A DNA stretch of 64,000 nucleotides from Candidatus Moraniibacteriota bacterium (GTDB lineage Bacteria > Patescibacteriota > Minisyncoccia > Moranbacterales > DUUL01): contig JALVDV010000007.1 in the NCBI GenBank assembly GCA_027008775.1, forward strand, positions 5,797-69,796. Direction: 5' to 3'. Positions within the stretch are counted from its first letter, which is position 1. Every line of letters starts with the position of its first letter. Made by a program: the position numbers and the translations under genes. Shown in pieces: positions 11,798 through 63,548 of the stretch. The notes beneath the pieces are model-generated. The model was not told the origin of the DNA and did not search any database. It saw only the letters and a list, made by a program, of their open reading frames with translations.

Positions 11798-11883
11798 TAT
11801 TATGATATTATCAATAATATCATAATATTTGTTTGTGTTGTTGTTGGGAGTTGTATTATGATATTATCAATAATATCATAATA
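11798..11883. repeat. pair of 30-bp perfect palindromes (tattatgatattat-ca-ataatatcataata) separated by 26 nt. This is copy A of a ~130-bp repeat unit that also occurs at 61570-61700.
   Basis: Seen directly. 14-nt arms with a 2-nt centre. The same downstream flank motif (GTTT..GGGnGGGTA.T.ACTGA.AA) follows both loci. Confidence 0.8.
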
Positions 11884-23065: not shown

Positions 23066-23512
23066 ATGAAATTGAAGAGTAATTCAAGGGGTTTTACGCT
23101 GGTGGAGTTGCTTTTGGTGATCGCCATTATCGGTATTTTGGCAGCAGTTGTTTTCATTGTGATTGGTCCGGCGCGTAAAAAAGCTCGGGTAGCCACTTTC
23201 AAAGAGCATATGGTTGATTTGGTAAAGGCCGGAGCTTCTTGTATAGACAGTGAAGGGATAATACAAGATGGGCAGGCTGATGGTACGCAACCCTTTTGTC
23301 TAAATAGTGCCGGAAATCCAGTTGGTGGTTTAGACAATATTCCAGAGATAAAGGTTTGTAGAGGTGGTTCAGGTGTGATAACGATCAGTGTTCAGAATGG
23401 TGGCAGTGATGATTTTGAGATTACGGCTGATTGCCCAGTAAGTGACACTGCCAATTGTACCGCTGATTGTACTATTGGTGGTTGTACGTTTAGTGATGAA
23501 TGTAATCTATAA
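23066..23512 (+). CDS. type IV major pilin paralog 1
   Basis: Class III signal ...SRGFTLVELLLVIAIIGILAAV (prepilin cleavage G|F, Glu+5). C-terminal Cys pairs. GGAGG RBS. Confidence 0.8.
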   Translation: MKLKSNSRGFTLVELLLVIAIIGILAAVVFIVIGPARKKARVATFKEHMVDLVKAGASCIDSEGIIQDGQADGTQPFCLNSAGNPVGGLDNIPEIKVCRGGSGVITISVQNGGSDDFEITADCPVSDTANCTADCTIGGCTFSDECNL

Positions 23513-23688
23513 TGTTTTAGAAATCGGTTATGGGTTTTTAGGACGGGTTCGTCTTAAAAACTCATATTCCGGTTTTTAGAGTGTTAGTTTTTGTTGTGGC
23601 TTGGGTGGATTTGTTTGGGAAAGGCGTCGCTTTATTGGAGACAGTAAAGTGTTTAGATATAACATCGTATTTATTAAAGCGAAAAAAT

Positions 23689-24081
23689 ATGTTGCGGAAA
23701 AATAAAAGTGGTTTTACCTTAGTTGAGATATTATTGGTGATCGCGGTTATTGGGATTTTGTCCAGTGTAATCATGGTGGGGATTGGTGGTGTTCGGAAAA
23801 AAGCCAGAACATCGGCAGCTCTGAAAACGGCCGAGAGCGCAACGGCTGAACTGGCGCATTGTTATTTAAATGATAAGCCTATTACACCGTGGACCAATAA
23901 TATAAATGGTGGCGGAATTATCTGTTCTGGCGCCGGGGAATGGCCTTCTTTAACGCATCGTTGTCATTATGATATTTTTAATGCTGCTAATTATGAGTTT
24001 TCAATTAAGTGTAATGATGACCAGCATACCATAACTTGCAATTACGCCGATGGTAAGTGTATCGTCAGTTATGGTAGCTAG
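23689..24081 (+). CDS. type IV pilin paralog 2
   Basis: MLRKNKSGFTLVEILLVIAVIGILSS, with C-terminal cysteines. ATG 23689 is chosen over the longer alternative-start ORF at 23581. Confidence 0.75.
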   Translation: MLRKNKSGFTLVEILLVIAVIGILSSVIMVGIGGVRKKARTSAALKTAESATAELAHCYLNDKPITPWTNNINGGGIICSGAGEWPSLTHRCHYDIFNAANYEFSIKCNDDQHTITCNYADGKCIVSYGS

Positions 24082-24137
24082 CAGGTTTTTATTTGACTTT
24101 GATTAGTGAGCGTTTTGTTAATAGATAAACAGAAAAA

Positions 24138-24593
24138 ATGAGATTTGGTTTTTTGAAGAGGGAAAATGGTTTTACTTTAATAGAATTATTAACAGTGATG
24201 GCCATTATTGGGATTTTGTCGGCGGCGATGCTGATTACTTTATCGGTTTACAAGAAAAGAGCGACGGCTAGCAAGTTGTTGCTAGAATTATCTTCAGCTA
24301 TGCAAAAGGTTTATCTTTGTATTTCCGATGGAAATCAGGTTGCTCAACCGACTGATGCCGGTGGGGGTGTCATTTGTCAAGATGCAGGTGATAATGATTT
24401 GCCAAATTATGGACGTTGGCCCGAATTACCTTCCGGATATGTGTATCAATCGTCTTCTTCTTTTGGGAATAGCTGGTTTTATATGGTTACCAGTGGTGAT
24501 GGTGACTTGAGGATTTGTTGCAATTCAACTTCCGGTAAATGTAAGAAATTTGATTCGGTCGCTCCCTGTAATACAACTACAGATTTAAATTAG
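24138..24593 (+). CDS. type IV pilin paralog 3
   Basis: MRFGFLKRENGFTLIELLTVMAIIGILSAA, with four C-terminal cysteines. Confidence 0.75.
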   Translation: MRFGFLKRENGFTLIELLTVMAIIGILSAAMLITLSVYKKRATASKLLLELSSAMQKVYLCISDGNQVAQPTDAGGGVICQDAGDNDLPNYGRWPELPSGYVYQSSSSFGNSWFYMVTSGDGDLRICCNSTSGKCKKFDSVAPCNTTTDLN

Positions 24594-24598
24594 CCTTT

Positions 24599-25417
24599 AT
24601 GTTTTGGTTGGTATTTTTCAAGTTTTCGGTTGTTTTCGTGTTGGGTTTGATTTTTGGCAGTTTTGCCGGGGTGTTAATAGAAAGAGGAGAGAAAGGAGAA
24701 AGTTTGCGGGGGCGCTCCCATTGTGATCATTGTAAAAAGAAAATAGTTTGGTACGACAATATCCCGGTGGTCAGTTTTCTGTTGTTACGGGGCAGGTGTC
24801 GCTATTGTGGGCAAAGAATATCTTGGTGGCACCCTTTGACAGAACTGATTTTTGGGGTAACGTTTGTTGGGTTAGCTTGGCAGAGCGGATTTTTTGCCGG
24901 TTGGCTCAGTGGTGATGATATTTGGCGGACTGTTTTTTGCCTGGCCATCGGTTTTATTCTTTTGACAATTTTGTTTTGGGATTGGAAGTATATGATAATT
25001 CCCGATGGGCTGGTGGTAGGAGGGCTAGTCATCGGAGTTCTTTTTTATCTGCGCGCTTATTTGCTTTCCCCGGATACCTTGTTGGCGGTGAATACTGATT
25101 TGAGTCGTAATTTATTGGGTGGTTTGGCAGTTGGAGGATTTTTTTATTTGCTTTGGCGATTTTCTCGGGGGAAATGGATTGGCGGTGGTGATGTTAAGTT
25201 GGGGTTTTTAGTTGGGTTTTTGGTTGGTTGGAAATTGTCTTACTTTTTGTTACTCTTGAGTTATCTTTTGGGAGCTGTGCCGGCGTTGTATTTGTTGTTG
25301 ATAGGGAAGGCAAAGGCTGGGAGTAAAATTCCTTTTGGGCCTTTCTTGGTTTTGGCTACCTTGATCGTTTTATGCTGGTCGGATAGGCTTAGTCATTTGT
25401 TAAAATATTGGTTTTAA
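24599..25417 (+). CDS. pilD: prepilin peptidase PilD (A24 family)
   Basis: Tetra-Cys zinc motif CDHC...CRYC, multiple TM helices, catalytic Asp region (IIPDG). Confidence 0.85.
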   Translation: MFWLVFFKFSVVFVLGLIFGSFAGVLIERGEKGESLRGRSHCDHCKKKIVWYDNIPVVSFLLLRGRCRYCGQRISWWHPLTELIFGVTFVGLAWQSGFFAGWLSGDDIWRTVFCLAIGFILLTILFWDWKYMIIPDGLVVGGLVIGVLFYLRAYLLSPDTLLAVNTDLSRNLLGGLAVGGFFYLLWRFSRGKWIGGGDVKLGFLVGFLVGWKLSYFLLLLSYLLGAVPALYLLLIGKAKAGSKIPFGPFLVLATLIVLCWSDRLSHLLKYWF

Positions 25418-25432
25418 ATTAGCTTAAAGTAA

Positions 25433-26119
25433 ATGTTCAAGCTGCGTTTAGAAAAGAAAAATAAAAGTAAAAAGGAAAACGGGAAAGAGGGTTCTATTGC
25501 CGGTCATTTTTTCAGGCAGGCCGGGTTTTTGTTTGTAAAAAAGGGAGTTGTTTCAGGTTTTCAGGCCGGTTTTACTTTAATTGAAATGGTGATAGTGATT
25601 GCCATGATTGGAATTATTACCGGGGCGACATTGAAACTGGTGAGATTTTCCGACATTTACAAAAATTTGACTTTGAAAACGATGGAAATTAAAGGAATTT
25701 TGCGAAACGCTCAGATTTTGTCTTTGGCGCCGCCGGTTATTGAGAAAGATGGAAACAAGTTGCTGATTTGCGGATTTGGCTTGCGGAACGACAGTTCTGA
25801 TCTGTCCAAGGTTTCGCTTTTTTATTCCTATTCTCCAAATAATGAGGTGGAAGATTGTGCCAATATAGGAAATATTGGTGATGTCTGTGATGAGGTGGGT
25901 GCGGGTAATGCTTGCCTAGATTATGAGACGAAGAAATTTGATGGTTTTACGATTACCAGAGATGGCAATAGTCAGCCGGTTAAGATATTTTTCCGCTCTC
26001 CTTATGGTGAGACCGTTGGGGTTGCTGATACCGGTTATAATATTGTTATAAAACAGGCTGAAAACAATTACACCAAGACTATTAAGGTAAACAAATTTGG
26101 CAAAATAAATGAAGAGTAA
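25433..26119 (+). CDS. minor pilin / pseudopilin (prepilin-type N-terminal cleavage/methylation domain)
   Basis: QAGFTLIEMVIVIAMIG after a long basic leader. The start codon is uncertain. Confidence 0.6.
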   Translation: MFKLRLEKKNKSKKENGKEGSIAGHFFRQAGFLFVKKGVVSGFQAGFTLIEMVIVIAMIGIITGATLKLVRFSDIYKNLTLKTMEIKGILRNAQILSLAPPVIEKDGNKLLICGFGLRNDSSDLSKVSLFYSYSPNNEVEDCANIGNIGDVCDEVGAGNACLDYETKKFDGFTITRDGNSQPVKIFFRSPYGETVGVADTGYNIVIKQAENNYTKTIKVNKFGKINEE

Positions 26120-34818: not shown

Positions 34819-36003
34819 ATGTTTATGAAAAAAGAGAAAAGAAGGAAAGACAAGGTTAGAATAATTGGTGTGGACGGGCGTTGTTTGTTGGATGCAAATT
34901 ATACCGGTGTCAGTGAGTACACCGTTTTTTTATTGAAGAAAATTTTGCGTGATTATCCCAACTATCGCTTGCGAGTATTTGTAAACAGTTTTCATAAGGT
35001 TGAGTTGAAAAAAAAACTGCCTTGGCTTTATCGTTCGCAACGGGTGGAGGTCAAGTACTACAGAATTCCCAATAAATTATTAAATTTTTCCTTTTGGTTT
35101 TTCGGTTGGCCGAAATTGGATAAGCTCTTGGGTGGAGTTGATTTGTTATTGGTTCCCAATATTTCTTTCTTGGCGGTCAGTAAAGATGTTTTTTTTATCT
35201 TGACACTTCATGATTTATCTTTTGAGAGATGGCCGGAAACTTTTTCTCGCAAAAGACGTTGGTGGCATTTTTTTGTCAATCCCAGAAGGTTGGCGCAGAG
35301 AGCGAATGAAATTTGGACAGTTTCCGATTCTACCAAATCAGATTTGGTTGATCTTTATGGTGTGCAAAAAGAAAAAGTGAAGGTAAAGAATTTATTTGAG
35401 GCAAAAATTATTTCAGGTCCGAATAAATTGGATGAAAGAAGAAAGAGGGAGGTGAGAAAGAAATATAACCTCCCGGATAAATTTGCTTTGTACTTAGGAA
35501 CAATTGAGCCGAGGAAAAATATTCTAACTTTGTTAAAAACATTTGTTTATTTGTGGGAAAAGAAATTAATTGACCAACGTTGTAAATTGGTCTTGGCCGG
35601 ACAGCTTGGCTGGAAGTACGGAGAAGTGGTTAAGTTTATTGAAAAATCCTCTTGGCGACGAAATATCATCCTAACCGAATTTATTGAAAGCAAAGACAAG
35701 AGATGCTTGTATGCGATGGCTGAACTCTTTGTTTATCCTTCTCTGTTTGAAGGTTTCGGTATTCCGGTTTTGGAAGCGATGGCTATGGGAACGCCGGTGA
35801 TAACGGGAGACAACTCATCTTTGCCGGAAGTTGTTGGTTCGGCCGGTATAATGGTTGACGTGGAAAGAATTGATGAGTTGGCGGAGGCAATCAGGTTGAT
35901 TCTCAATAACCCTCATTTAGCTGATTACTATCGGCGGAAAGGTAGACGACAGGCGCAGATAATAAATGACCGGAGCGCTAAAACAAAGCTTTTTGCCGAT
36001 TGA
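34819..36003 (+). CDS. family GT1 (GT4-type) glycosyltransferase
   Basis: EGFGIPVLEAMAMGTPVITGDNSSLPEV (the E-x7-E GT-B motif). Confidence 0.8.
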   Translation: MFMKKEKRRKDKVRIIGVDGRCLLDANYTGVSEYTVFLLKKILRDYPNYRLRVFVNSFHKVELKKKLPWLYRSQRVEVKYYRIPNKLLNFSFWFFGWPKLDKLLGGVDLLLVPNISFLAVSKDVFFILTLHDLSFERWPETFSRKRRWWHFFVNPRRLAQRANEIWTVSDSTKSDLVDLYGVQKEKVKVKNLFEAKIISGPNKLDERRKREVRKKYNLPDKFALYLGTIEPRKNILTLLKTFVYLWEKKLIDQRCKLVLAGQLGWKYGEVVKFIEKSSWRRNIILTEFIESKDKRCLYAMAELFVYPSLFEGFGIPVLEAMAMGTPVITGDNSSLPEVVGSAGIMVDVERIDELAEAIRLILNNPHLADYYRRKGRRQAQIINDRSAKTKLFAD

Positions 36004-36210
36004 TTATTTTAGGTGAAATTTTTGATTTGCGATGGAAAAATGATTCTGATTTGACATTTTTCTGTTTTTGTGTTATCTTTGGGAAGTTATCAGAGTTCTT
36101 GAAGCGGGTGGAAATTGTTGTTTTAGGGCAAGTGGGTAGGATAATTTGTCGGGAGGCAAGAAGTTTTGCAGAGAGTAAAGTGAAACTTTTAATTAGAAGG
36201 TGAAGTATAG

Positions 36211-36219
36211 TGGTATAAT
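36211..36219 (+). promoter_or_regulatory. extended -10 promoter TGgTATAAT, 14 nt before the ATG (near-leaderless transcript)
   Basis: Seen directly. No SD sequence. Confidence 0.35.
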
Positions 36220-36232
36220 TTATTTTTGAAGA

Positions 36233-37327
36233 ATGAAGAAAATTACGGAAAAAGAGTGGCGGAGGGCAACAGATTTGTTCTTAAATGAACTAAGCGAGAG
36301 ACAAAGAAAATTAGTTTCTCGCCGTTTTGGTTTACAGAATAAAAAAGCGCGGACATTGGCCGCCATCGGTAGAAGTGAGGGAGTGTCCAGAGAACGTGTC
36401 AGGCAGATTGTGACCGGCGCTTTGAGAAAACTTAAAAAGAAAATAGAAAGAGCCGGAGAGAATGAAGAGAAAAAAGAGTTTTACAAAACGATTCTTGGGA
36501 GAATTGAGGAAGAGGGCGGAGTTATTGGCCGGAATGTTCTTTTGCGAGAAACATTGTCTGATAAGACGACTCTGTCGCGGGCGAAGCGAGCGGGAATGAT
36601 TAGTTTTATTTTAAGTTCTTTGCCCGGTTTGCAATACAAAAAACCTTCCGTTCGTTTTGGTGAGTTGTGGTATTTGCCTCAGGCCAAAGATTTTGTTACT
36701 AAAGTTGATCGTTTTCATAATGATTTGGTTGCTTATTTTGAAAAGCAGCAGAGGCCTTATACTTTTGCCAAGTTGCGAAAGGAATTCGGATCTTATGCAA
36801 AGGCTTATGCAGAAAAAGGAATTAAAAAATTAGAGATTGACAAAAAGAAGCTAGGGTTGCTTTTGCGGGAAAGTTATCTTTTAGGAGAGAATATTTTGGG
36901 GCAATGGGGATTAGCGAAGTGGAAGATTGTTAGGCCGACGGCTGTCAGGGAGAAAGCTTATTTGGTTTTCAAAAAAGAGAGGGAGCCTTTGCATTTTAGA
37001 GCGCTGACGACACGGATTAACAAGTACTGGAGTAGTGGCAGGCGCGCTTTGCCGCAAACGGTGCATAACGCCATTATTAAATATCCGGAGTTTGTGGTGG
37101 TTGATTTGGGGACCTACGGCTTAAAGGAATGGTTGTATGAAGAAAATGATATTCGGCAGAGGTTACTGGATTTTTTTGAGAAAAACAAAAAGGCCTCCAT
37201 TGAGGAATTAGTGAGTTCTTTGAAGAAAACAAAAGAAAGCAGGGTTCGTCTGGAAATCACTTTGCGAGCAATACTGCACAGAGAAAAGATGTTTATTCGC
37301 CGAAATGGTAAATATATGGTAAAATAG
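36233..37327 (+). CDS. DNA-binding protein with an N-terminal sigma-70 region-4 HTH and a C-terminal HARE-HTH-like domain
   Basis: - LSERQRKLVSRRFGL...TLAAIGRSEGVSRERVRQIVTGALRKLKK is sigma70_r4-like.
- EPLHFRALTTRINKYW...LPQTVHNAIIKYPEFVVVDLGTYGLKEW is HARE-HTH-like. Confidence 0.55.
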   Translation: MKKITEKEWRRATDLFLNELSERQRKLVSRRFGLQNKKARTLAAIGRSEGVSRERVRQIVTGALRKLKKKIERAGENEEKKEFYKTILGRIEEEGGVIGRNVLLRETLSDKTTLSRAKRAGMISFILSSLPGLQYKKPSVRFGELWYLPQAKDFVTKVDRFHNDLVAYFEKQQRPYTFAKLRKEFGSYAKAYAEKGIKKLEIDKKKLGLLLRESYLLGENILGQWGLAKWKIVRPTAVREKAYLVFKKEREPLHFRALTTRINKYWSSGRRALPQTVHNAIIKYPEFVVVDLGTYGLKEWLYEENDIRQRLLDFFEKNKKASIEELVSSLKKTKESRVRLEITLRAILHREKMFIRRNGKYMVK

Positions 37328-37500
37328 TCTTGGCGTAGAACTTATCTATGGTTTTCCCTTTCTAATGTTCAGTTAGGCTTTCTGGATGTTATTTTCTATC
37401 TGGTGTTTGAGGCTTCGTTGATTGAAAAAGGAGTCAAACATGTGTCTGAAAATAATATTCAAAAGGCTTGGCGGATAAAGGGTTTGAAATGATGACTCCG
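37317..37500 (+). promoter_or_regulatory. extended -10 (TGgTAAAAT, 37317-37325) plus conserved leader element copy A (~37368-37500)
   Basis: ~80% identical over ~130 nt to 42122-42265 (GGATGTTATTTT..TGGTGTTTGA..GTTGATTGAA..AAGTCAAA..GTCyGAAAATAA..TCAAAAAGCTTG). The minus-strand ORFs covering it are presumed spurious. Confidence 0.5.
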
Positions 37501-37584
37501 AATGAATTGACGACGAGGGCAGTAGGAAACGGAGCGGTATTTTCTCTTGCTTGTCTTGTTTTTTGGAAATTGTCAAAATAAAAT

Positions 37585-38976
37585 ATGATAAAAGAGGAGA
37601 AAGAAAATGTAAAATTAAAACATCTTTGGCAGTTTTTGGCGGGAGGTTCGTTGGTGGTTTGGTTTTTAATGTTTTTTCTTTTTCCGGCAGAGGCAAAGAT
37701 TTTTTGGACGACCATATTTGTGCTTTTCAAAGATTACTGGTGGATAGTTTTGCCTTTTCCGATGTGGGAAATTTATCAATCAATGTGGATGGAACAGGTG
37801 GTGGGGGCTTGGTTGTCCAGTCGGGAATATACGTTATTGGAATTGATTCCTCCACGGGATATTGAGAAAAGTCCCAAGTTAATGGAACATGTTTTTGCCG
37901 GAATAAATGATTATTCCACGCCGAATCGTTTAGAGATTCATTGCGGTTGGCGTGTTTTGCAGCCACGTTGGTCTTTTGAGCTGACCGGTGATGAAGGGAT
38001 GGTCAGATATTTTATTCGTTGCCCGAAGGCCTCCAAGGCGACAGCTGAAGCGCAAGTGTACGCTCATTATCCGGATATAATCATCAAGGAAGTGGAGGAC
38101 TATGTGAAGAAGGCGCCTCACAATATTCCCAATGCTCGTTGGGATATTTGGGGAGCCACTCTAACCTTGGTTAAGCCGGACCCGGTGCCTATTAGGACGT
38201 ACCGACAGTTTCAGGAGGAGGTAACCGGTAAAATGATTGATCCTCTGGCTAATATTGTTGAGGTGATGGGCGCCTTGCCCAAGGGTCAACATCTCTGGTT
38301 TCAAATTTTATTGGAAAGTGAGAAACCACCGAATTGGCACCCCGCCAGCTTGGCCTATATTCAAAGTTTAATTGATGAGCATTTGGGTAAAAAAAATGGA
38401 AAAGAGTTTCCTCTGTTGAGATTTTGGCATGAATTAAAGTTGTTGCCGGGGAACCTTTTGAGCGCTTTGGCGGGCAAAGAATTAGCTACACCACCAAGCA
38501 GTGGAGGAGAAGAAGAGCCGGAGTTTAATATAAATAAACTGCCGCCGGGAGTGCAGGAAAAAATAGAAGCCATCTCGCAAAACATTTCCAAACCCGGTTT
38601 CCGAACAGTGATAAGGTTTATATACTTTGGCACCAGAGATAATTTCAACAAGGCGCTGGGAGTAGCCGGTATTATGGGTCCGATAAAACAGTTGGGAGAC
38701 GTTAATTTAAATGACTTGGTGCCTTCAAATTTAACTAAAACTTTTGCCAATTACTATTTTGATGAAGAGAGGTTGTTACGGAAGAAAAGAAAAATTTATA
38801 ATGATTTTATCTCCCGAGATATGGTTGGGCTTTGGATGATTATGAATACGGAGGAATTGGCCACTCTTTATCACTTCCCAGATATGTCTATCAGAAGTCA
38901 GGCTATTACCAGAGTGGAATCCAGACGGGAAGAAGCTCCCGCCAATTTACCGGTTGATTTGGAAGTTGAAGAATAA
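37585..38976 (+). CDS. hypothetical membrane protein (two N-terminal TM helices, large soluble C-terminal region). First gene of VirD4-like module A.
   Basis: TM1 LWQFLAGGSLVVWFLMFFLF, TM2 IFWTTIFVLFKDYWWIVLPF. No recognised domain. Translationally coupled position upstream of 39015. Confidence 0.5.
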   Translation: MIKEEKENVKLKHLWQFLAGGSLVVWFLMFFLFPAEAKIFWTTIFVLFKDYWWIVLPFPMWEIYQSMWMEQVVGAWLSSREYTLLELIPPRDIEKSPKLMEHVFAGINDYSTPNRLEIHCGWRVLQPRWSFELTGDEGMVRYFIRCPKASKATAEAQVYAHYPDIIIKEVEDYVKKAPHNIPNARWDIWGATLTLVKPDPVPIRTYRQFQEEVTGKMIDPLANIVEVMGALPKGQHLWFQILLESEKPPNWHPASLAYIQSLIDEHLGKKNGKEFPLLRFWHELKLLPGNLLSALAGKELATPPSSGGEEEPEFNINKLPPGVQEKIEAISQNISKPGFRTVIRFIYFGTRDNFNKALGVAGIMGPIKQLGDVNLNDLVPSNLTKTFANYYFDEERLLRKKRKIYNDFISRDMVGLWMIMNTEELATLYHFPDMSIRSQAITRVESRREEAPANLPVDLEVEE

Positions 38977-39014
38977 AAATCCAAACTTAATCAGTTAAGT
39001 AAGCTAAAATAACA

Positions 39015-40973
39015 ATGGTTGAGACAAAAGAAGAAATAAATTTCTTTGCCAAAACCAATTTTCGCAACAAGGAGCGTCCTTTCGGAATAAAAACCGATGA
39101 TCGGCGCAGGCATTTCTATACTCTGGGAAAAACGGGAATGGGTAAGACGAGCATGATTCAGAATATGGCCATTCAGGATATTCGCAGTGGCAAGGGTTTG
39201 GCCATTGTTGATCCGCATGGTGAATTTGCCGAGGAATGTTTGAAGGCCGTGCCGGAAGAAAGAATCAAAGATGTTATTTATTTTAATCCGGCCGATTTGG
39301 AATATCCGATTTCTTTGAATATTTTGGAAAAGGTTGATCCGGAACATAGACATCTGGTTTCTTCCGGTTTGATAGGAATTTTTAAAAAACTTTGGGCTGA
39401 TTCTTGGGGTCCTCGTTTGGAGTATATTTTACGCAATGCCATTTTGGCTTTGTTGTCGCATCCTTCTTCCACTTTATTAGGAATCAATCGTTTGTTGGTT
39501 GACAAACAGTATCGGGAAGAGGTTCTGTCTTACGTTGACGATCCGGTGGTGAGTTCTTTTTGGAAGGATGAATTTTCCAAGTATAACGACCGTTTGTTAA
39601 CAGAGGCTATTTCTCCCATCCAAAATAAAGTTGGTCAGTTCTTGTCAAGCGGTTTGATTAGGAACATTGTGGGGCAAACCAAATCTTCTTTTTCCGTCAG
39701 GGAAGCGATGGATAGCAATAAGATTTTGATTTTAAATCTCTCCAAGGGACGGATTGGAGAGGATAGTAGCGCTTTGCTGGGAGCAATGATGATTACCAAG
39801 ATTCAACTGGCGGCAATGAGTAGAGTTGATATTCCCGAGGCGGAAAGAAAGGATTTCTATCTTTATGTTGATGAGTTCCAGAATTTTGCCACCGAATCTT
39901 TCGCCGGTATTCTTTCAGAAGCCAGAAAATACCGATTGAGTTTGATTTTGGCGCATCAGTTTATGGCTCAGTTGGATGAGTCGGTGATGAATGCCGTTTT
40001 GGGTAATGTGGGAACGATTGTAGCTTTTCGAGTGGGGGCGATGGACGCGGAGATTTTGGAAAAGGAGTTTGAGCCGGTTTTTTATGCCAATGACTTGGTT
40101 AATTTGGACAAGTATAATATTTATCTGAAGCTGATGATTGACGGAGTGGCCACTCGGCCGTTTTCGGCAACTACGTTGATGCCGATAGACACCAGTGATA
40201 CAGCTGAGAATCTGGAGAAAGTAATAGAAATGTCTCGCCGGCAATATGCTCACGATCGGGCGACGGTGGAACGGCGCATTATGGAATGGAGCGGGATGCG
40301 CAGCGGGGCGGTTAGCAAGAATATTGAATCTTTAGCCAAAAACAGAATACGTGATTTGGTGAAAGGAAGCGCAAATGTTTCGGCGCAGAAGTCGGTAAAC
40401 GATGATCAAAATAGAAACAAAAAGGGAAAAGGAAAAGGACAAGCAAAAAAAGGCGCGGGAAAAGCGAAAGTAACGAAAACCGATGCTTTGATAAATGAAC
40501 TGGGAATTGGTTTGGGAGAAGAGACAGTTGGCTCTTCGGAGGGAGATCTTGAAGTGGGGCAATCGGAAGTGTCTCCGATAAATGCGGGAAGAGAAGAGGG
40601 AACTATATCAGGAGAGCCGAAAGCAAACAAAAAGAAAAAGGCAAAACCAGCGGAAGAAAAACAACAAACAAGGATAAAAGTTAATTGCTCCGGTTGCGGT
40701 ATAGAAACAGAGGTGAATTTTCAGCCGGATGGAGTGCGGCCGGTTTTTTGTCCGGAATGTTTGAAGGAGTACCGTCGTCAACAGGCCAAGTTGAAACAAG
40801 AGATGGAAATGGCCAACTCAGCGTCGGCGCAGATAAATGAGTCGGGTCAAACAAAAGATAAATCAAACGTTAATAGGCCGGTGTTGACGAGAAAAAAAGA
40901 AGCAAAGAAGACGTCGGTGGATACCGATGAAGTCAAAAGATTAATTCAGGAAGCTATTGATGGAAAAAAGTAA
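39015..40973 (+). CDS. soluble VirD4/TraD/TrwB-like coupling-protein ATPase with a C-terminal Lys/Gly-rich tail and zinc ribbon
   Basis: - Walker A TLGKTGMGKTS
- DPHGE box
- Walker B YVDEFQNF
- TrwB-like LILAHQFMAQL...GNVGTIVAFRV
- no TM segment
- C-terminus KKGKGKGQAKKGAGKAK... then CSGCG-x17-RPVFCPEC. Confidence 0.7.
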   Translation: MVETKEEINFFAKTNFRNKERPFGIKTDDRRRHFYTLGKTGMGKTSMIQNMAIQDIRSGKGLAIVDPHGEFAEECLKAVPEERIKDVIYFNPADLEYPISLNILEKVDPEHRHLVSSGLIGIFKKLWADSWGPRLEYILRNAILALLSHPSSTLLGINRLLVDKQYREEVLSYVDDPVVSSFWKDEFSKYNDRLLTEAISPIQNKVGQFLSSGLIRNIVGQTKSSFSVREAMDSNKILILNLSKGRIGEDSSALLGAMMITKIQLAAMSRVDIPEAERKDFYLYVDEFQNFATESFAGILSEARKYRLSLILAHQFMAQLDESVMNAVLGNVGTIVAFRVGAMDAEILEKEFEPVFYANDLVNLDKYNIYLKLMIDGVATRPFSATTLMPIDTSDTAENLEKVIEMSRRQYAHDRATVERRIMEWSGMRSGAVSKNIESLAKNRIRDLVKGSANVSAQKSVNDDQNRNKKGKGKGQAKKGAGKAKVTKTDALINELGIGLGEETVGSSEGDLEVGQSEVSPINAGREEGTISGEPKANKKKKAKPAEEKQQTRIKVNCSGCGIETEVNFQPDGVRPVFCPECLKEYRRQQAKLKQEMEMANSASAQINESGQTKDKSNVNRPVLTRKKEAKKTSVDTDEVKRLIQEAIDGKK

Positions 40974-42021
40974 AAGTGTTTTAGTTGGTTTGAGCGGAGG
41001 GGTTGATTCCTTGGTGACAGCTCATTTGTTACAAGAAAGCGGTTATAGGGTGAAGACTGTTTTTTTGAAACTTAGGGATGACAAGGCCGAAGAAGCGAGG
41101 GCAAAAATGGCAGCCGATTCTTTGGGTTTGAAATTGGGTGTTTTTGATTTACGAAAAGAGTTCGAAAAAACCGTTCGCTCTGATTTTGTAAAAAAATATC
41201 AAAAAGGTTTGACTCCCAATCCGTGTGTCTTTTGCAATCCGGAAATCAAGTTTGCTTTTTTGCAAAAAATGGCTGATAGATTGGATTGCAAGAAAATAGC
41301 CACCGGACATTATGCCAAGGTGGAGTGCCGGCCGGAAAGTGAGGAGAAAGATAAAAAGTGCTTGTTGATAAAAGCTAAAGATAAATCCAAGGACCAGTCT
41401 TACTTTCTTTACAGGTTAAGCGCAAAGCAGTTGCGGAAGATTTTGTTTCCCTTGGGCGGTTTGAAAAAAGCGGAAGTTAAAAAAATTGCTCAGAAAAATA
41501 ATCTACCTTTACCAAAGGCGGAGTCTCAAGATGCTTGTTTTTTGGTTGGTTCCAACTTAGATGATTTTTTGCGTAACAATTTGTCAAGCAATCTTTTTAC
41601 TCCAGGAGAGATTGTGGATGAAAAGGGTGAAAAAGTCGGGACCCACCGGGGGCTGTTGTCTTACACAATCGGGCAAAGAAAGGGGATAGATGTTGGGGGA
41701 ACGGGTCCTTTTTATGTCAAGGGTAAGGATTTTAAGAAAAATGTTTTGTTGGTGACACGTCGTCGGGATGACTTGCTTTCTGATAAAGTTGTGTTTAGGC
41801 AAACAAATTGGCTGGCCGGTTTGCCTGAAAAGGATAAACAATATCATGTTAAAATCAGATATCAGATGAAACCGGTGAGGGCGACTGTGCAGAGAAAGGG
41901 TAGTCATTGGGAAGCAGTGGCGCAGGAGGGAGACGCCTTTAGTATGGTTACACCCGGGCAGTCATTGGTGGTTTATGATGGTGATGTGGTTATTGGGGGA
42001 GGAGTGATAGAATTTGTTTAA
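40957..42021 (+). CDS. mnmA: tRNA-specific 2-thiouridylase MnmA
   Basis: PP-loop VLVGLSGGVDSLV, catalytic cysteines (NPCVFCN, ...QDACF), ~354 aa. Confidence 0.9.
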   Translation: MMEKSKSVLVGLSGGVDSLVTAHLLQESGYRVKTVFLKLRDDKAEEARAKMAADSLGLKLGVFDLRKEFEKTVRSDFVKKYQKGLTPNPCVFCNPEIKFAFLQKMADRLDCKKIATGHYAKVECRPESEEKDKKCLLIKAKDKSKDQSYFLYRLSAKQLRKILFPLGGLKKAEVKKIAQKNNLPLPKAESQDACFLVGSNLDDFLRNNLSSNLFTPGEIVDEKGEKVGTHRGLLSYTIGQRKGIDVGGTGPFYVKGKDFKKNVLLVTRRRDDLLSDKVVFRQTNWLAGLPEKDKQYHVKIRYQMKPVRATVQRKGSHWEAVAQEGDAFSMVTPGQSLVVYDGDVVIGGGVIEFV

Positions 42022-42077
42022 AGTTTTAATTTTTTGAGAATGTCATTGTAAAATTTCACCAAATAGTCAAAGTGGTG

Positions 42078-42265
42078 TATAATTTTTGTTGAAGAATTCA
42101 TCGGGTTCTCCTTTTTCAATATTTAGTCAAGCTTTTTGGATGTTATTTTTTACTTGGTGTTTGACACTTTGTTGATTGAAGAATAAGTCAAATATATGTC
42201 CGAAAATAACACTCAAAAAGCTTGAGAGACAAAGAGTTTAGGAGGGTAGCTCTAAGTGAATTATG
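42078..42265 (+). promoter_or_regulatory. -10 TATAAT (42078-42083) plus conserved leader element copy B (~42122-42265)
   Basis: Paralogous to 37368-37500. Confidence 0.5.
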
Positions 42266-42302
42266 GAAGTTTTGTTGGTTGATTCTGTTTTAAATTAAAA
42301 TT

Positions 42303-42611
42303 ATGAATAATGAGACAAATATCAGGGAACTGAGAAATCTTTTAACAGCTCTCAATGTTAAATTGGTTGATTTGGAGGCCGATGAGAAAAGATTGAAAGT
42401 GGAAAAGGAAAAATTGGCTTTGGAAATTAGACGAAAAAAGAAGGAGAGGCAGAGATTGGAATTGTTTATCAGGGAGTTAAAAAACCGAGAAAAAGAAATT
42501 GAAAAAAAGTTTTTTGAATTCTCGGCGGATAAAAAACGTCTTTTAAAGAAGAGGGAGGAATTATTGGCCAAAATGAGATTGCTTGAAAGTAAATCTGATA
42601 ATAATTTTTAA
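42303..42611 (+). CDS. small coiled-coil protein. First gene of VirD4-like module B.
   Basis: 102 aa, heptad-rich K/E sequence. Preferred over antisense ORF 42290..42571. No SD. Confidence 0.35.
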   Translation: MNNETNIRELRNLLTALNVKLVDLEADEKRLKVEKEKLALEIRRKKKERQRLELFIRELKNREKEIEKKFFEFSADKKRLLKKREELLAKMRLLESKSDNNF

Positions 42612-42624
42612 TTAGTTCTGGGCA

Positions 42625-46361
<3,737 letters not shown>

Positions 46362-46540
46362 ATAAAGGTTGGAAAATGTTTTAAGGGGAAACTGAAGGTG
46401 GTAAATTTGCAAGCAGGTCGTTATTGGTTTTGGTTGCTTTCCTTGATAAAGGCTCAATCTTTGTGGACGTGAGAATTGAGTCTTTGCTTTCTTATTGTTG
46501 GATGGGCAAAAAAGGCGGATAATATCATTTCTTAAACAAA

Positions 46541-48334
46541 ATGGCTGGAGAAATTGAGCAAATAAAAGAAAGAGTGGGGGTGGTGGAACTCATTGGAGAA
46601 TATGTTAAGTTGGAAAAAGCCGGGAGTAATTATCGGGCGCTTTGTCCTTTTCATAACGAAAAGACGCCCTCTTTTATGGTCAATCCGGAGAGGAATTTCT
46701 GGTATTGTTTTGGTTGTCAGGAAGGCGGAGACATTTTTACTTTTTTGCAAAAAATAGAGGGTCTGGAATTTAGAGAGGCTCTGGTTAAGTTGGCGGAAAG
46801 AGCCAATGTTCAGCTGCCGCGTTTGCAAAGAGGAGATTATCAAAAAGAAAAGTCTGAGAAGGAGGAGGTTTGGCGGGCTCTGGAATTGACTACCGAATTT
46901 TACCAAAGACAGTTGTTGAAAAATAATAAGGCTAGGGCGGTAATTCAATATTTAAAAGAGAGAGGTTTTACTCGGTCGGTGATTTATGATTTTAAAATAG
47001 GTTATGCTCCGGAAGGATGGGATAATCTCCTCAATTATTTGCAAGGAAGGAAAATCAGGCCGGCTGTAATGCTGAGAGCCGGCTTGTTGGTTGAGGGGAA
47101 GGCCGGAGGAATGAAAGAGCAGGGGAAGTCTTATTATGACAGATTTCGGGACAGGATAATGTTTCCAATTCTGGATGCCAGTGGTCGGACGGTTGGCTAT
47201 TCGGGTCGGATAAATCCCACCGAAGAAAAGACGGCGGTGGCCAAATACATTAACACGCCTCAAACTTTAGTTTACGATAAAAGCCGAGTGCTTTACGGTC
47301 TTTATCAAGCCAAGGAAGCTATTCGGCGGAGTGGTTACGCGATTGTGGTGGAAGGTAATGCCGATGTGGTCCTGTCTCACACGGTTGGCGTGAAGAATAT
47401 TGTAGCGGTTTCCGGAACGGCTCTGACCGAGGAGCAAGTGGCTTTACTGAAGCGTTACACTGATAAAGTGATGTTGGCTTTTGATATGGATGAGGCCGGA
47501 CGCAAAGCGACGGAACGCAGTTTGGCGGCTTGTTTGCGTAATGATTTGGAAGTGAAAATTATTTTGTTGACTGAGCGTTATAAAGATGTTGGCGATGTTA
47601 TTCAAGATAAACCTCAGCGTTGGCCGGAGTTCATTAAAAAGGCTTTGCCGGTGATGGAATATTATTTTGATACTTTAATTAACGAGGAATCAATTTCTGA
47701 TATACGGAGAAAGAAATTAGTCATCAGAAAGTTGATAGGGATTATAGCAAACATTGCCGATCCGGTGGAGCGATCCTACTGGTTGAAGAAATTGGCGGCG
47801 AGGACGGCGGTGGAAGAAACTTTGTTGACAGATTTGCTGAAAAAAGTTAAATTGAAGGATGTGCAAAAAGATATTGAAGGGAAAAAAGCGGAAGAAGGAC
47901 AGTCTTTTAGAAGCTTCAGAGAGAAGGAGGCGGATCGGTATTCTGTTTTGCAGTGTCGTCTGCTCGGTTTAGCCAGTGAATTTAGGGAAGAGTTGAAGGA
48001 TGAGTTACGTTCTTTTCCGGCTGAAAATTATCTTTCGCCGATGTTTTTGACTTTATTTGAAAATGTTCGACGGGAAAGTGTTGATAAGGAACAAGAAAAT
48101 TTGTTGAACAAATGTGTTTTGGAATTGAAGTATAAGAAAGAGGGCGATGATTTGTTGGAAGTTGAAATCAAGCCTCAGAGGGAATGGACGTTAGTGCTGG
48201 AAGAAATGGATAAAATAAAAAAACAAGCCAGGATTAAGGCGATTCAAAAAAAATTGAGGCTGTTGGAGGAACGGGGAGACGAACAGGGCGCGCAAAAATT
48301 ACTCTCCAAACTAACTGAGATTTTAGATACTTAG
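46541..48334 (+). CDS. dnaG: DNA primase DnaG
   Basis: CHC2 zinc finger CPFHNEKTPSFMV...CFGC, TOPRIM (VVEGNADV...DMDEAG). Confidence 0.9.
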   Translation: MAGEIEQIKERVGVVELIGEYVKLEKAGSNYRALCPFHNEKTPSFMVNPERNFWYCFGCQEGGDIFTFLQKIEGLEFREALVKLAERANVQLPRLQRGDYQKEKSEKEEVWRALELTTEFYQRQLLKNNKARAVIQYLKERGFTRSVIYDFKIGYAPEGWDNLLNYLQGRKIRPAVMLRAGLLVEGKAGGMKEQGKSYYDRFRDRIMFPILDASGRTVGYSGRINPTEEKTAVAKYINTPQTLVYDKSRVLYGLYQAKEAIRRSGYAIVVEGNADVVLSHTVGVKNIVAVSGTALTEEQVALLKRYTDKVMLAFDMDEAGRKATERSLAACLRNDLEVKIILLTERYKDVGDVIQDKPQRWPEFIKKALPVMEYYFDTLINEESISDIRRKKLVIRKLIGIIANIADPVERSYWLKKLAARTAVEETLLTDLLKKVKLKDVQKDIEGKKAEEGQSFRSFREKEADRYSVLQCRLLGLASEFREELKDELRSFPAENYLSPMFLTLFENVRRESVDKEQENLLNKCVLELKYKKEGDDLLEVEIKPQREWTLVLEEMDKIKKQARIKAIQKKLRLLEERGDEQGAQKLLSKLTEILDT

Positions 48335-59606: not shown

Positions 59607-61448
59607 ATGAAAAAAAAGAAAAGTCGTAATCTGGTTAGACGTTATGTTTCGGCCAACAGGATGTTGTTGCTTATTCTGTTGGTTGTTTTTTTAGTAGGCG
59701 GTATTCTTTTTCGTTTTTATTTTTTACAGGTTAGAGAACACGAAAAATACGTTGCTTTGGCGGAAGCTCAATATAAGATTAAGAGAAAGCTAGTTTCTCG
59801 GAGGGGAGAAATATTTTTTCAAGAAGGAACAAAGTTGGTGCCGGCGGCGGTGAATAAAAATATGCCAACTCTTTATATTAATCCAACAGAGATAAAAAAT
59901 CAGGAGAAAACGGTTAGTTTGTTGACAGATATTTTGGATTTAGATGAGCAATTTGTCCGACAAAAAGTTAATAAAATTGATGATCCTTACGAAGTGCTGA
60001 AGAAAAAGTTGTCTGAAGAAGAAGTAAAGAGGGTGAAACAAGTTTCTTTGCCGGGGGTGTATTTACAAAATAAAGAATGGCGTTATTATCCGGGTAAAAC
60101 TTTAGCTGCTCAGACTCTTGGTTTTCTTGGTTATAAGGAAAATGAATTAGTGGGGCGGTACGGGGTGGAGCAATATTTTGACACTATATTGCGAGGGCAA
60201 GCCGGTTTTTTGGAAGAAGACAAGGATGCCCGAGGGAATTGGATGGCTATTGGTAGTAAAATTTTTAATCCTTCTTATGATGGAGCCGATTTGATTCTGA
60301 CCGTTAATCCCACCATTCAGTTTAAAGTGGAGAAAGTTTTGGAGGCGGCGGTAAAAAAACATAAAGCGGACAGCGCCAAGGCTATCGTAGTGGAGCCAAG
60401 AACCGGTAGAATTCTGGCAATGGCCGCTTGGCCCACTTTTGATCCGAATGAATATTATCGGGCGGAAACAAAATTGTTCAAAAATCCAAATGTCAGTGAT
60501 GCTTATGAACCGGGTTCGGTTTTTAAAATCCTGACGATGGTGGCCGGTTTAGATGCCGGACGAGTAACTCCTGAAACGGTTTATACTGACACGGGAGTGG
60601 TTGAGGTGGGTGGATTTACCATTAAAAATTCCGATGGTAAAGCTCACGGACAACAAACAATGACGCAAGTGATTGAAAAGTCTTTGAATACGGGAGCCAT
60701 TTTTGTGGAGAAGCGTTTAGGTAACAAACTGTTTGCCGATTATATCAAGGCTTTTGGCTTTGGTAAAAAAACTGGTATTGAATTACCGGCGGAAGTTTCC
60801 GGAAATATCAGTCACTTACACTCTAAGGGTGATACCGAGTATTATACTGCTTCTTATGGGCAGGGGGTAACAGTGACACCTTTGCAACTGGCTATGGCCT
60901 ATTCCACTTTAGCTAATGGTGGAGTTTTAATGAAACCGATTATAGTTGACAGAATAGAAAAAAATGGTCAATTGCTGAAAGAGCGAAAACCTCAACTGGT
61001 AAGACAAGTTGTTTCAGCGGAGAGCACCAAACAGGCAGCTTTGATGTTGGAAGCTAATGTTAAAAAAGGACATGGTAAATTGGCCGGTGTTCCTGGTTAT
61101 AAAATTGCCGGAAAAACCGGAACAGCTCAAATTCCTGATTTGCAAAATGGCGGTTACTTGGAGGGGGCAACGGAAGCAACTTTTGCCGGTTTTGCGCCAG
61201 TGGAAAATCCGGTTTTTGCCATGGTGGTAGTTATTGATCATCCGCGAGATGTTGAGTGGGCAGCGGCTACGGCGGCGCCGGCTTTTGGAGAAATCTCCCG
61301 TTTTCTTTTGAGTTATTTTTCTCAAAAACCAACGGAGGCTTATACTGAGAAAGACTGGGAGATTTTCCATAAAAAACACGATTATTTGTTGGACATAAAA
61401 AATCAAACTAAGGAGTATGAACAGAATGATGAAAATGACACCGACTGA
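59607..61448 (+). CDS. ftsI: penicillin-binding protein, class B transpeptidase (FtsI/PBP2-like)
   Basis: N-terminal TM, SVFK (SxxK), SLN (SxN), KTGT (KTG) motifs. Confidence 0.85.
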   Translation: MKKKKSRNLVRRYVSANRMLLLILLVVFLVGGILFRFYFLQVREHEKYVALAEAQYKIKRKLVSRRGEIFFQEGTKLVPAAVNKNMPTLYINPTEIKNQEKTVSLLTDILDLDEQFVRQKVNKIDDPYEVLKKKLSEEEVKRVKQVSLPGVYLQNKEWRYYPGKTLAAQTLGFLGYKENELVGRYGVEQYFDTILRGQAGFLEEDKDARGNWMAIGSKIFNPSYDGADLILTVNPTIQFKVEKVLEAAVKKHKADSAKAIVVEPRTGRILAMAAWPTFDPNEYYRAETKLFKNPNVSDAYEPGSVFKILTMVAGLDAGRVTPETVYTDTGVVEVGGFTIKNSDGKAHGQQTMTQVIEKSLNTGAIFVEKRLGNKLFADYIKAFGFGKKTGIELPAEVSGNISHLHSKGDTEYYTASYGQGVTVTPLQLAMAYSTLANGGVLMKPIIVDRIEKNGQLLKERKPQLVRQVVSAESTKQAALMLEANVKKGHGKLAGVPGYKIAGKTGTAQIPDLQNGGYLEGATEATFAGFAPVENPVFAMVVVIDHPRDVEWAAATAAPAFGEISRFLLSYFSQKPTEAYTEKDWEIFHKKHDYLLDIKNQTKEYEQNDENDTD

Positions 61449-61569
61449 TTTGTCAGTTTCGTTTTGGTTAGGAATGTTTTCAGTCTGTTCAGATTTTTTG
61501 TTAATGAATTTTTTGTTAGTGAGCCAAGGAAGTTTTAGATAAAATTACTTACTCATGGAGATGTCAACT

Positions 61570-61653
61570 TATTATGATATTATTGATAATATCATAATAT
61601 ATTTGTTATCTGTGGTGGGGTGGTATTATGATATTATCAATAATATCATAATA
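61570..61653. repeat. second pair of the 30-bp palindrome (centre tg in the first copy, ca in the second), separated by 24 nt. This is copy B of the ~130-bp repeat unit.
   Basis: Seen directly. Same palindrome arms as at 11798-11883, and a similar G-rich downstream flank. Confidence 0.8.
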
Positions 61654-62303
61654 CCCGAAAAGTTTGTTGCTGGGGGGGGTAGTGACTGAAAAGATGAGGA
61701 TTATTTTTATTCCTGCCTTTTGATGACGGTAGTCGATCTATTGATATTAAAGTTCTTGTTTACTATCTATAACCATAGTTTGTTTCGGTAGCTAAGGCCA
61801 ATAAGCTGAGTGCGATTTCTTTTGTTTATGGTTGGTTTTGAATTTTTTCTATTGTTTGTTACCTGTGGGATTTTTTAAATACGTTGACTATTTGAAAAGT
61901 TGCTCTCTTGTGTTTGACCCATCAAGGATTCTCTTTCTAAATTTTTTGCCCATCAAACTTTCCGGGCATTATTTTCAGATTTATATTTGATTTCTTCTTT
62001 AAGCAACAAAGTGTCAAATATCAGGCAGAGAACAACATCCAGAAAGCTTGACTGAATATTGGAAAAGAAAAATCCTAAATGAGTTTATTGGTAAAGTGTC
62101 GAGTAAATGATTAGTAGGAGGTGGTGCCGTTGAGGTTCAGACAATGTTGAGAGATGAGGTAGGGATTTCAGAGAGGTTTGGGGTTGTTTGTATTGCGATT
62201 ATTTTGTACACTTTGTTTATCAGAAGAAATTGTTATACCAGAATGATTAGCCCACAGTTTTGTTTTGAATATTTTTGGAGGGGATAAGTTTTAGTTTAAT
62301 TGT

Positions 62304-63548
62304 ATGCTGAGAAAGGAAATTGTTTTACAAAAAATTTTGAGAATTTTAGCCGGTGCTGTTTTGAAAAAATACCAGTCAAGGGTGGTGGCGGTTACCGGCA
62401 GTGTGGGTAAAACAACCGCCAAGGAAATGATTTTTAGAGTCTTATCCGGCGATAAACTGAAAGTTTGGAAAAGTCAAAAGAACTACAATAATGAGTTGGG
62501 AATTCCCTTGGCGATTTTGGGGATTTCCGGGGAGAAAAAAAATTGGTGGGGCTGGTTGTCTGTTTTGTTGCGAGCCGGACAATTGATAATTTTTCCCAAT
62601 AATTATGCTGATGTTTTAGTTTTGGAATTGGCGGCTGATTCCAGGGGAGATATTAAATATTTTTGCAGCTTCATTCCAATTGAAGTGGGGGTTGTTACCA
62701 ATGTTGGAATTTCTCACTTGAAAAAGTTTGGCAGTCAGAAAGCTATTTTTGAAGAAAAGACTTATTTACTGAAGAGAGCAAAGGAGGTAGCGATTTACAA
62801 TAGAGATTCTTTGGAAGTAGAAAGCTTAAAATTAAAGCAAAAAACTTATTCTTATGCTTGTGAAAAAAAGGCTGATTTTAAAGCGGATGATATTGACTAT
62901 TTTTACAAAAAAGATAAGCGTTTGCCTCAGGGTCTTGTTTTTACAGTAAAGCATCAAGAGAAATCAATGGTGATTAAATTAGAGGGTTTGTTTGGCAGGG
63001 GTTATATTTACGGGGTGTTGGCTGCCTTGGCGGTGGCCCAATATTTTGCCATTGATTTAAATAAAGCCAAGAAGCGTCTGGAAAAAACAAAACCGCTTTC
63101 AGCACATTTGGAAGTAATTCAAGGAAGAAGGGGGGCTATTATTATAAATGACGTTTACAATAGCGCGCCTGACAGTTTGCGAGAAGCATTGCGGTTGGTG
63201 AAAGATTTACCGGCGGAGAGAAGGTGGCTGGTTTTGGGGGACATGTTGGAATTGGGCGAATTTGAAGATAGCGCTCATCGGGAAGTTGGCGAGCTTTTAT
63301 CTTCGGGAGAGAAGAATTTTGTTCTGGTAACGGTGGGAGAGAGAATGAAATTGGCGGGTGAGGAGTACCAAAAACGAACCGGTAATAAATTTTTTGCTTT
63401 TGCTAAGGCGGCTGAGGCCGGTCGGTGGCTAAGAAAAAAAATCAGGAAGGGAGATGTTGTGTTGGCAAAAGGCTCCCGAGGAATGAAAATGGAAGAGGCG
63501 GTGAAGGAATTGGTGACGGGGAAGAAAGCAAAAATAAAGAATTCTTAA
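62304..63548 (+). CDS. murF: UDP-N-acetylmuramoyl-tripeptide--D-alanyl-D-alanine ligase MurF, lacking the canonical N-terminal domain
   Basis: LAGAVLKKYQSRVVAVTGSVGKTTAKEM aligns with E. coli MurF LAAWVRQQVPARVVALTGSSGKTSVKEM. IINDVYNSAPDS. ~85 N-terminal residues are absent. Confidence 0.7.
   Translation: MLRKEIVLQKILRILAGAVLKKYQSRVVAVTGSVGKTTAKEMIFRVLSGDKLKVWKSQKNYNNELGIPLAILGISGEKKNWWGWLSVLLRAGQLIIFPNNYADVLVLELAADSRGDIKYFCSFIPIEVGVVTNVGISHLKKFGSQKAIFEEKTYLLKRAKEVAIYNRDSLEVESLKLKQKTYSYACEKKADFKADDIDYFYKKDKRLPQGLVFTVKHQEKSMVIKLEGLFGRGYIYGVLAALAVAQYFAIDLNKAKKRLEKTKPLSAHLEVIQGRRGAIIINDVYNSAPDSLREALRLVKDLPAERRWLVLGDMLELGEFEDSAHREVGELLSSGEKNFVLVTVGERMKLAGEEYQKRTGNKFFAFAKAAEAGRWLRKKIRKGDVVLAKGSRGMKMEEAVKELVTGKKAKIKNS

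Follow-up and report, generated by a model that had tools for sequence, protein, structure and literature searches.

In the window, the whole 64,000-nt stretch of DNA from a Candidatus Moraniibacteriota bacterium analysed here, two non-coding segments at 37368-37500 and 42122-42265 share sequence and lie in front of different genes, which raises the question of whether they represent a regulatory RNA belonging to these genes or a repeat that is placed independently of them. A preliminary description had proposed the former, a candidate cis-regulatory RNA of about 130 nt in two copies. The results presented below rather favour, with a probability of about 0.7, a non-autonomous, MITE-like palindromic repeat of ~175 bp, which is co-transcribed as a 5' leader hairpin.

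Homology of the two segments was borne out: gap-free extension yielded 159 nt at 75% identity, pairwise and three-way alignments were concordant, and a profile from 14 copies gave three window matches (E = 1e-55, 6e-52 and 3e-50; next best E = 0.6). All shared blocks listed beforehand are present except ‘AAGTCAAA’, which reads GAGTCAAA in copy A. The unit proved to be longer than 37368-37500, however, and occurs three times instead of twice, as delimited by a covariance model of 176 positions (R1), with the parts of copy A taken from the helix map of an alignment of 13 copies (A4):

37336..37511, plus strand: copy A (R1 score 160.5 bits; sense-strand MFE -42.8 kcal/mol, z = -4.8, against -18.5 on the opposite strand)
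37339-37353: left terminal repeat of copy A
37369-37475: central hairpin of copy A
37494-37508: right terminal repeat of copy A
42092..42265, plus strand: copy B (156.9 bits; -40.9 kcal/mol, z = -4.7, against -29.4)
42095-42107: left terminal repeat of copy B
42123-42229: long hairpin of copy B
42248-42262: right terminal repeat of copy B
61913..62088, minus strand: copy C, also recovered by inverted-repeat matches (161.7 bits; -36.1 kcal/mol, z = -2.3, against -22.9)

Indel lengths between copies are not multiples of three, and neither a transposase nor any other ORF is contained in the repeat, in agreement with the earlier statement that the sense strand has no coding potential. Because independent assemblies of near-identical strains (L127, L128 and L129; L numbers denote loci collected from other assemblies) carry the same copies, these are not an assembly artefact.

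The surroundings of the three copies comprise the following features:

36233-37327: sigma70_r4/HARE-HTH gene upstream of copy A
37317..37325, plus strand: extended -10 box TGGTAAAAT, read from the sequence, feeding into copy A
37585..40973, plus strand: operon 3' of copy A with a DUF8128 protein and a TrwB/VirD4-like ATPase (Pfam)
37585 or 37654 to 38976, plus strand: DUF8128 gene (Pfam)
39015-40973, plus strand: TrwB/VirD4-like ATPase with treble-clef zinc finger (Pfam)
42055..42083, plus strand: promoter upstream of copy B, TTCACC, 17-nt spacer, TATAAT (scan, 10/12 positions)
42303..46361, plus strand: genes 3' of copy B, the first coding for a 102-aa coiled-coil protein (Pfam)
42625-44163, plus strand: second TrwB/VirD4-like ATPase, paralogous to the one after copy A (Pfam)
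44163-46361, plus strand: NAD-dependent DNA ligase, ligA (Pfam)
59607-61448: PBP/FtsI-like gene, neighbour of copy C
62304-63548: Mur ligase gene, neighbour of copy C

Copies A and B do lie in 5' leaders, as first described, directly after the -10 boxes of promoters, whereas the distances originally given have to be revised. The left end of copy A is found 12 nt past its extended -10 box, which partly coincides with the stop codon of the sigma70_r4/HARE-HTH gene before it and was not reported by a strict -35/-10 promoter scan, and copy B starts 10 nt past the TATAAT at 42078-42083, so that the -10 boxes are 10-12 nt instead of 40-50 nt upstream of the true left end. Likewise, the first start codons (ATG at 37585 and at 42303) follow the right end after 74 nt in copy A and 38 nt in copy B instead of 85-120 nt. 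For the 463-aa product of the gene after copy A, an exact sequence look-up returned no record.

Copy C is an orphan, antisense to its neighbours in an 855-nt spacer (61449-62303), with no minus-strand promoter predicted upstream and no ORF downstream. For a genome this compact, the spacer, which holds no ORF of at least 90 aa and no Rfam match, is of unusual length. It also harbours, upstream of the Mur ligase gene, one of two intergenic pairs of a 30-bp perfect palindrome, TATTATGATATTATCAATAATATCATAATA, whose four copies (11798-11827, 11854-11883, 61570-61599 and 61624-61653) are 54-56 nt apart within and ~49.7 kb apart between the pairs, and resemble operator sites or the termini of something. 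Further observations concern the window as a whole. Its strand asymmetry is extreme and uniform: the plus strand contains 16865 G versus 9012 C (positions 1-64000), each of the 4-kb bins has a GC skew of about +0.30, and nearly all long ORFs are on this strand; in a test of replication versus transcription orientation GC skew was confounded with gene strand. Within the first ORF (60-458), six 14-nt tandem repeats (GAGCAGAGAACAGT-like) were found at 244-355, and four ORFs at 23090-25628 have a type IV pilin-like N-terminal segment in common (GFTLIELL...), which indicates a probable cluster of pilin or pseudopilin genes.

Each copy of the repeat is an imperfect palindrome from end to end, folding into a rod of -36 to -43 kcal/mol. 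According to alignment A4 this palindrome is made up of a terminal helix of 15 bp (AACTTATCTAGGGTT with AACCCTGAATGAGTT), a short helix (CCTTT/AAAGG) and a hairpin of ~105 nt, the terminal inverted repeats GAACTYATCTAGGGTT / AACCCTGAATGAGTT thus enclosing the long hairpin. In the terminal helix (helix 1; columns 4-18 with 161-175) 83% of the cells of its 15 pairs are paired, and 14 of the 15 pairs are formed in the copy L072. Overall, 92.9% of the cells are paired, compared with 38-49% with a slid partner; pairs changed on both sides number 13, as against 7.4 ± 1.8 in shuffles; the structure was also obtained with RNAalifold, and paired columns are depleted in substitutions. Pairing exceeded the expectation of a neutral simulation that preserves each copy's own substitution spectrum (P = 0.006 for copy B, 0.0006 for copy C and 0.0002 for the copy in L012). 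Cells with G-U (67) outnumber those with A-C (34), even in copy C, which is encoded on the genome's G-poor strand; the value of this excess as proof of RNA-level selection is nevertheless reduced by the extreme strand composition of the window. Examination of the copies for compensatory changes, which had been proposed beforehand, accordingly revealed a conserved, strand-biased secondary structure in which such changes are present. Excess pairing could also come from arm-to-arm DNA repair or from selection on transposition-competent master copies.

Two smaller features were considered and discarded. The conserved 3' end, AGGAGG ... ATG AGT TAA, had the appearance of a mini-ORF (AGGAGG-N10-ATG AGT TAA), but it forms the 3' side of the terminal helix, and its ATGAGTT covaries with the 5' end, as in copy B, where AATTCAT pairs with GTGAATT. 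A local hairpin P2 (TTTAGG/CCTGAA), which competes with the terminal helix, has 87% of its cells paired, yet performs no better than shuffles. One copy, L096:1408-1584, scores nearly equally on both strands (175 versus 146 bits) because the ~53 nt in its centre have the reverse orientation with respect to the arms, the hairpin loop having flipped between these inverted repeats. Rfam reported only a tRNA at the gathering threshold, and at E up to 10 all matches were far below family gathering scores and mostly belonged to eukaryotic microRNA and snoRNA models; the Rfam scan suggested in the preliminary description therefore gave no known regulatory RNA identity.

Beyond the window, the element was found in other Patescibacteria assemblies at 67-92% identity; assemblies carrying it are GCA_027028205.1, GCA_027023005.1, GCA_015493225.1 (S145_42) and, from ENA, ERZ27262687 and ERZ27262679. 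A pattern scan of species-representative genomes detected three copies in the Patescibacteria MAG S145_42 (at least three are present there), one in L012 and two in tandem gene leaders of L014, and a metagenome scan added eight further copies or contigs, all from Ga0256831 and Ga0256832; the remaining matches of the pattern scans in both sources were chance matches. Searches for the element in phages, plasmids and viral contigs gave nothing beyond chance matches either, and the family is confined to a narrow lineage of Patescibacteria. The window copies are more similar to the consensus-like L072 (77-80% identity) than to each other (68-75%), a star-like pattern. Between genomes, nucleotide similarity is restricted to the element, with unrelated flanks, and the genes 3' of the copies are unrelated as well (groES, hsp20, mscL, DUF389, alpha/beta hydrolase, the DUF8128/VirD4-like operons and several unknowns). 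At 11 independent loci an ORF begins 6-74 nt past the element, which is in sense orientation in all and antisense in none, and 11/13 copies have a -10 box 10-13 nt ahead of the left end, in many cases a TGnTATAAT. Copies C, L031 and L113 are situated in long non-coding stretches with no evident downstream gene.

Comparison of orthologous sites between close relatives was decisive for the nature of the repeat, and presence or absence with precise boundaries was observed at groES and at a gene downstream of greA. At groES, the element lies between promoter and start codon in L012 and L120-L122 but is missing from L118/L119, although L118, with 90-93% nucleotide identity to L012, is closer to it than L120 is. 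Filled and empty loci alike possess the promoter TTGACA, 16-nt spacer, TAAAAT, the -35 of which is overlapped by a CIRCE operator TTAGCACCC-N9-GATTGCTAA, and both are also seen in the more distant, element-free L123; as promoter and CIRCE are kept with or without the element, they are owned by the host, and the element is dispensable at groES. The CIRCE-like inverted repeat is found at L012 ~1085-1111 and at homologous positions in L118, L120 and L123, implying HrcA-type heat-shock control of groES in these Patescibacteria. In addition, repeated tRNA-like segments on the opposite strand were noticed upstream of the groES promoter (L012:800-1100 and L118-L121), in unit numbers which vary between relatives.

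Downstream of greA, the site is filled in L139/L072 and empty in L138 (from S145_42), with near-identical flanks, and the junction reads ...TGTTGTATAATTTATAGTAGAG^TTAAATAAAAAT... The 4-bp sequence AGAG is single in the empty L138 and stands on both sides of the insert in L139/L072, the youngest copy, a duplication which suggests transposition; flanking 4-mers of other copies match at no more than 3/4 positions, and the groES junctions have diverged. At both empty sites the motif TATAGTAG immediately precedes the insertion point, the -10 box belongs to the host, and the host 5' UTRs are ~25-36 nt long. Such short 5' UTRs may by themselves account for the clustering of tolerated insertions immediately behind the transcription start. 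The empty groES site could be a secondary slippage deletion instead of a pre-insertion site.

At the window sites A and B, no copy was found in the syntenic loci L130/L131, L133/L134 and L173-L176 (63-68% protein identity), nhmmer and the covariance model being in agreement. The gene order in these loci is that of the window: sigma70_r4, DUF8128, VirD4-like, mnmA, small gene, VirD4-like. Absence from orthologous loci of related genomes is the very observation that the preliminary description had named as refuting its proposal. Within a single MAG (GCA_027023005.1), the element is present at groES (L120) and lacking at the DUF8128 operon (L176). It is located upstream of a hydrolase gene in L042 while the orthologue in the window (1165-1968) has none. 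As observations apart, the gene order of 36233-46361 is conserved across many Patescibacteria (L130, L133, L173), including a ~100-aa coiled-coil protein between mnmA and the second ATPase, and for the DUF8128 protein a total of 557 homologues was obtained at E up to 1e-30. Positions 35995-47000 compared with L127, whose DUF8128 protein is 99% identical, form a mosaic of ~74% to 100% identity in 200-nt bins, a pattern which suggests frequent recombination within the population.

The copies are thus discrete insertions that come and go between close relatives. A MITE-like repeat is preferred to a gene-specific RNA because the element is multi-copy and palindromic, has unrelated flanks, shows filled and empty sites and is absent from syntenic loci. 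It shares with MITEs a size below ~500 bp, lack of an ORF, terminal inverted repeats, dispersed copies and presence/absence polymorphism; its membership is incomplete insofar as a convincing target duplication was seen only once and no autonomous partner, that is, the same termini enclosing a gene, was detected in the window and the collected loci. Known MITEs favour AT-rich intergenic targets, give rise to transcripts with stable stem-loops and have target duplications which fade with age (PMC10969869, PMC2649163, PMC2229807). The 11:0 sense orientation is not predicted by random insertion. Together with the retained pairing and the G-U excess, this bias suggests host-level or RNA-level selection, possible causes being RNA-level selection on an exapted leader, selection on master copies or arm-to-arm DNA repair, and sense-only placement in 5' UTRs with above-neutral pairing would be compatible with an exapted function as RNA.

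A dedicated cis-regulatory leader RNA (riboswitch-like, protein-binding or thermosensing), serving a stress or envelope regulon and spread by duplication of promoter and leader, is improbable as an alternative. Sense-only occurrence in 5' UTRs at a fixed distance after the -10 box and presence at both paralogous VirD4-like operons of the window would suit such an RNA, but syntenic orthologues are without the element, the set of genes preceded differs between genomes (L120 versus L176), and the orphan copies C and L031 have no target gene. The conserved structure with its 13 doubly changed pairs, pairing above the neutral simulation and the surplus of G-U over A-C also fit a functional RNA; conservation, however, extends over the whole length with no core resembling a ligand pocket, and no Rfam family corresponds to it. 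Although groES, hsp20 and mscL downstream are stress-related, the element is dispensable at groES in a 90-93% identical relative, where a canonical CIRCE already sits on the promoter. A heat-shock regulator, a candidate prompted by groES and hsp20, was rejected for the same reasons, groES having its own CIRCE and promoter and a close relative lacking the element, and a thermometer is contradicted by an AGGAGG too distant from real start codons. Conservation of a dedicated RNA with its genes is hence not supported, in view of syntenic absence, unrelated downstream genes, presence/absence between relatives, the orphan copy C and the lack of an Rfam family.

A role as DNA, with the long palindrome serving as operator or cruciform for a repressor or nucleoid protein just after the transcription start, is very unlikely: the location at ~+5 relative to promoters, the palindromic symmetry and the inverted central segment of L096, which shows that the DNA arms interact, are compatible with it, but 176 bp is far above the size of known operators, folding energies are strongly strand-asymmetric and depend on G-U pairs that have no DNA equivalent, and neither presence/absence nor unrelated downstream genes would be expected. 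A stand-alone small RNA gene in several copies, comparable to the rods of 6S or Y RNA, is scarcely credible, since its rod-like fold with paired 5' and 3' ends and the promoter directly upstream are countered by the missing terminator after every window copy, by a downstream gene following 6-74 nt later with no promoter of its own, by the indel polymorphism and by the lack of a 6S or other Rfam match. That A and B are by-products of a duplication of the DUF8128/VirD4-like operon, with merely paralogous upstream regions, can be dismissed, because, even though the TrwB/VirD4-like ATPase genes that follow them are paralogues, copy C, like more than 10 others elsewhere, is at unrelated genes and relatives with the same two operons lack the element.

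If the element is the co-transcribed MITE-like repeat favoured here, the host promoter would start transcription a few nucleotides before it, and the mRNA would begin with a rod of ~175 nt, the 5' end of which is base-paired in the predicted fold. Putative effects are protection from 5'-end-dependent decay, processing by RNase III in the near-perfect helix of ~26 bp, and binding or holding of ribosomes at the internal AGGAGG. Because the element would form the first ~175 nt of the mRNAs with a paired 5' end, its effect would be generic and post-transcriptional and would involve no sensing of a signal for a particular pathway.

Several known systems resemble this repeat in part. The Correia repeat-enclosed elements, MITEs of Neisseria, are ~100-155 bp long as compared with ~176 bp here, and likewise have terminal inverted repeats and dispersed intergenic copies which differ between strains. 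Some of their copies are promoter-proximal and co-transcribed, and their hairpin is RNase III-cleavable; the one immediately downstream of the mtrCDE promoter is cleaved by RNase III (PMC10969869; PMC2649163). However, there is no sequence similarity, the phylum is a different one, a TA duplication is missing from the present element, orientation here is strictly sense, and the -10 is the host's at both loci with an empty site. ERIC/IRU, RUP and BOX elements of enterobacteria and pneumococcus are imperfect palindromes of ~100-130 bp, transcribed, intergenic and strain-variable, with stable RNA stem-loops (PMC2229807, PMC3049150), but they occur in either orientation and often 3' of genes, whereas the present family, which has no sequence relationship to them, is found almost only near the transcription start. 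REPIN/REP sequences mobilised by RAYT and IS200/IS605-derived PATEs are comparable in being hairpin-based and non-autonomous with no obvious target duplication (PMC8049555 for REPINs). REP units measure 20-40 nt, and the typical place of REPINs is extragenic, close to 3' ends, in contrast to the single 176-nt palindrome described here. The shared TATAGTAG would be in keeping with orientation-specific insertion beside a short target, as in the REPIN/PATE type. Putative mobile promoters (‘promoter propagation’) likewise place highly similar upstream regions before non-homologous genes, both within a genome and between genomes (PMC3488235), but the present repeat unit starts after the -10, and since both empty sites retain the promoter, the moving unit is the leader and not the promoter. 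The motif of the CIRCE/HrcA operator (TTAGCACTC-N9-GAGTGCTAA) is missing from the element itself. Compared with 6S RNA, a single-copy rod of ~180 nt with a central bubble, the element is multi-copy, has no Rfam 6S match and is followed by no terminator in the window.

Two more palindromic families of 160-178 bp with other termini were encountered in comparable intergenic positions:

L012:1325-1484 and L139:815-974: family beginning AGACCTCT..., 160 bp, palindromic from end to end, termini AGACYTCTCCAGAAAC or AGATCTCTTGCAAAAC
L130:11213-11390 and L136:6743-6902, with a short form at L130:6378-6414: family GGGACTGTTTCC...GGAAACAGTCCC

The L130 copy of the GGGACTGTTTCC family occupies the orthologue of window site B, with a -10-like TATAAA and a TATAG motif ~10 nt ahead of it. 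In the groES leader of L012, a AGACCTCT-family copy is inserted directly after the ~175-bp element, and the corresponding operon spacers of L173 contain long perfect inverted repeats of still other kinds. A more far-reaching and rather doubtful proposal would treat all of these as ‘portable leaders’: palindromic families of ~160-178 bp, at least three in number and unrelated to one another, which would be inserted specifically at the first few transcribed nucleotides, beside an initial transcribed sequence resembling TATAGTAG, 10-13 nt after the -10, and kept sense-only because mRNA stability, processing by RNase III or the loading of ribosomes is set by the 5'-paired rod. The internal AGGAGG and the AUG-AGU-UAA start-stop of the rod would, just as tentatively, be part of this proposal.

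A full-text literature search retrieved no description of small palindromic mobile repeats in Patescibacteria. Motif-discovery pipelines would readily mistake the family for a new riboswitch-like leader on account of its covariation and 5'-UTR position, and it is the filled and empty sites that reveal it as a repeat. Its near-exclusive sense placement at transcription starts in compact genomes makes it a tractable case for studying how repeats are tolerated or exapted as 5' leaders and, if the notion of portable leaders were true, such repeats would add a mobile level of post-transcriptional control to genomes that have very few regulators.
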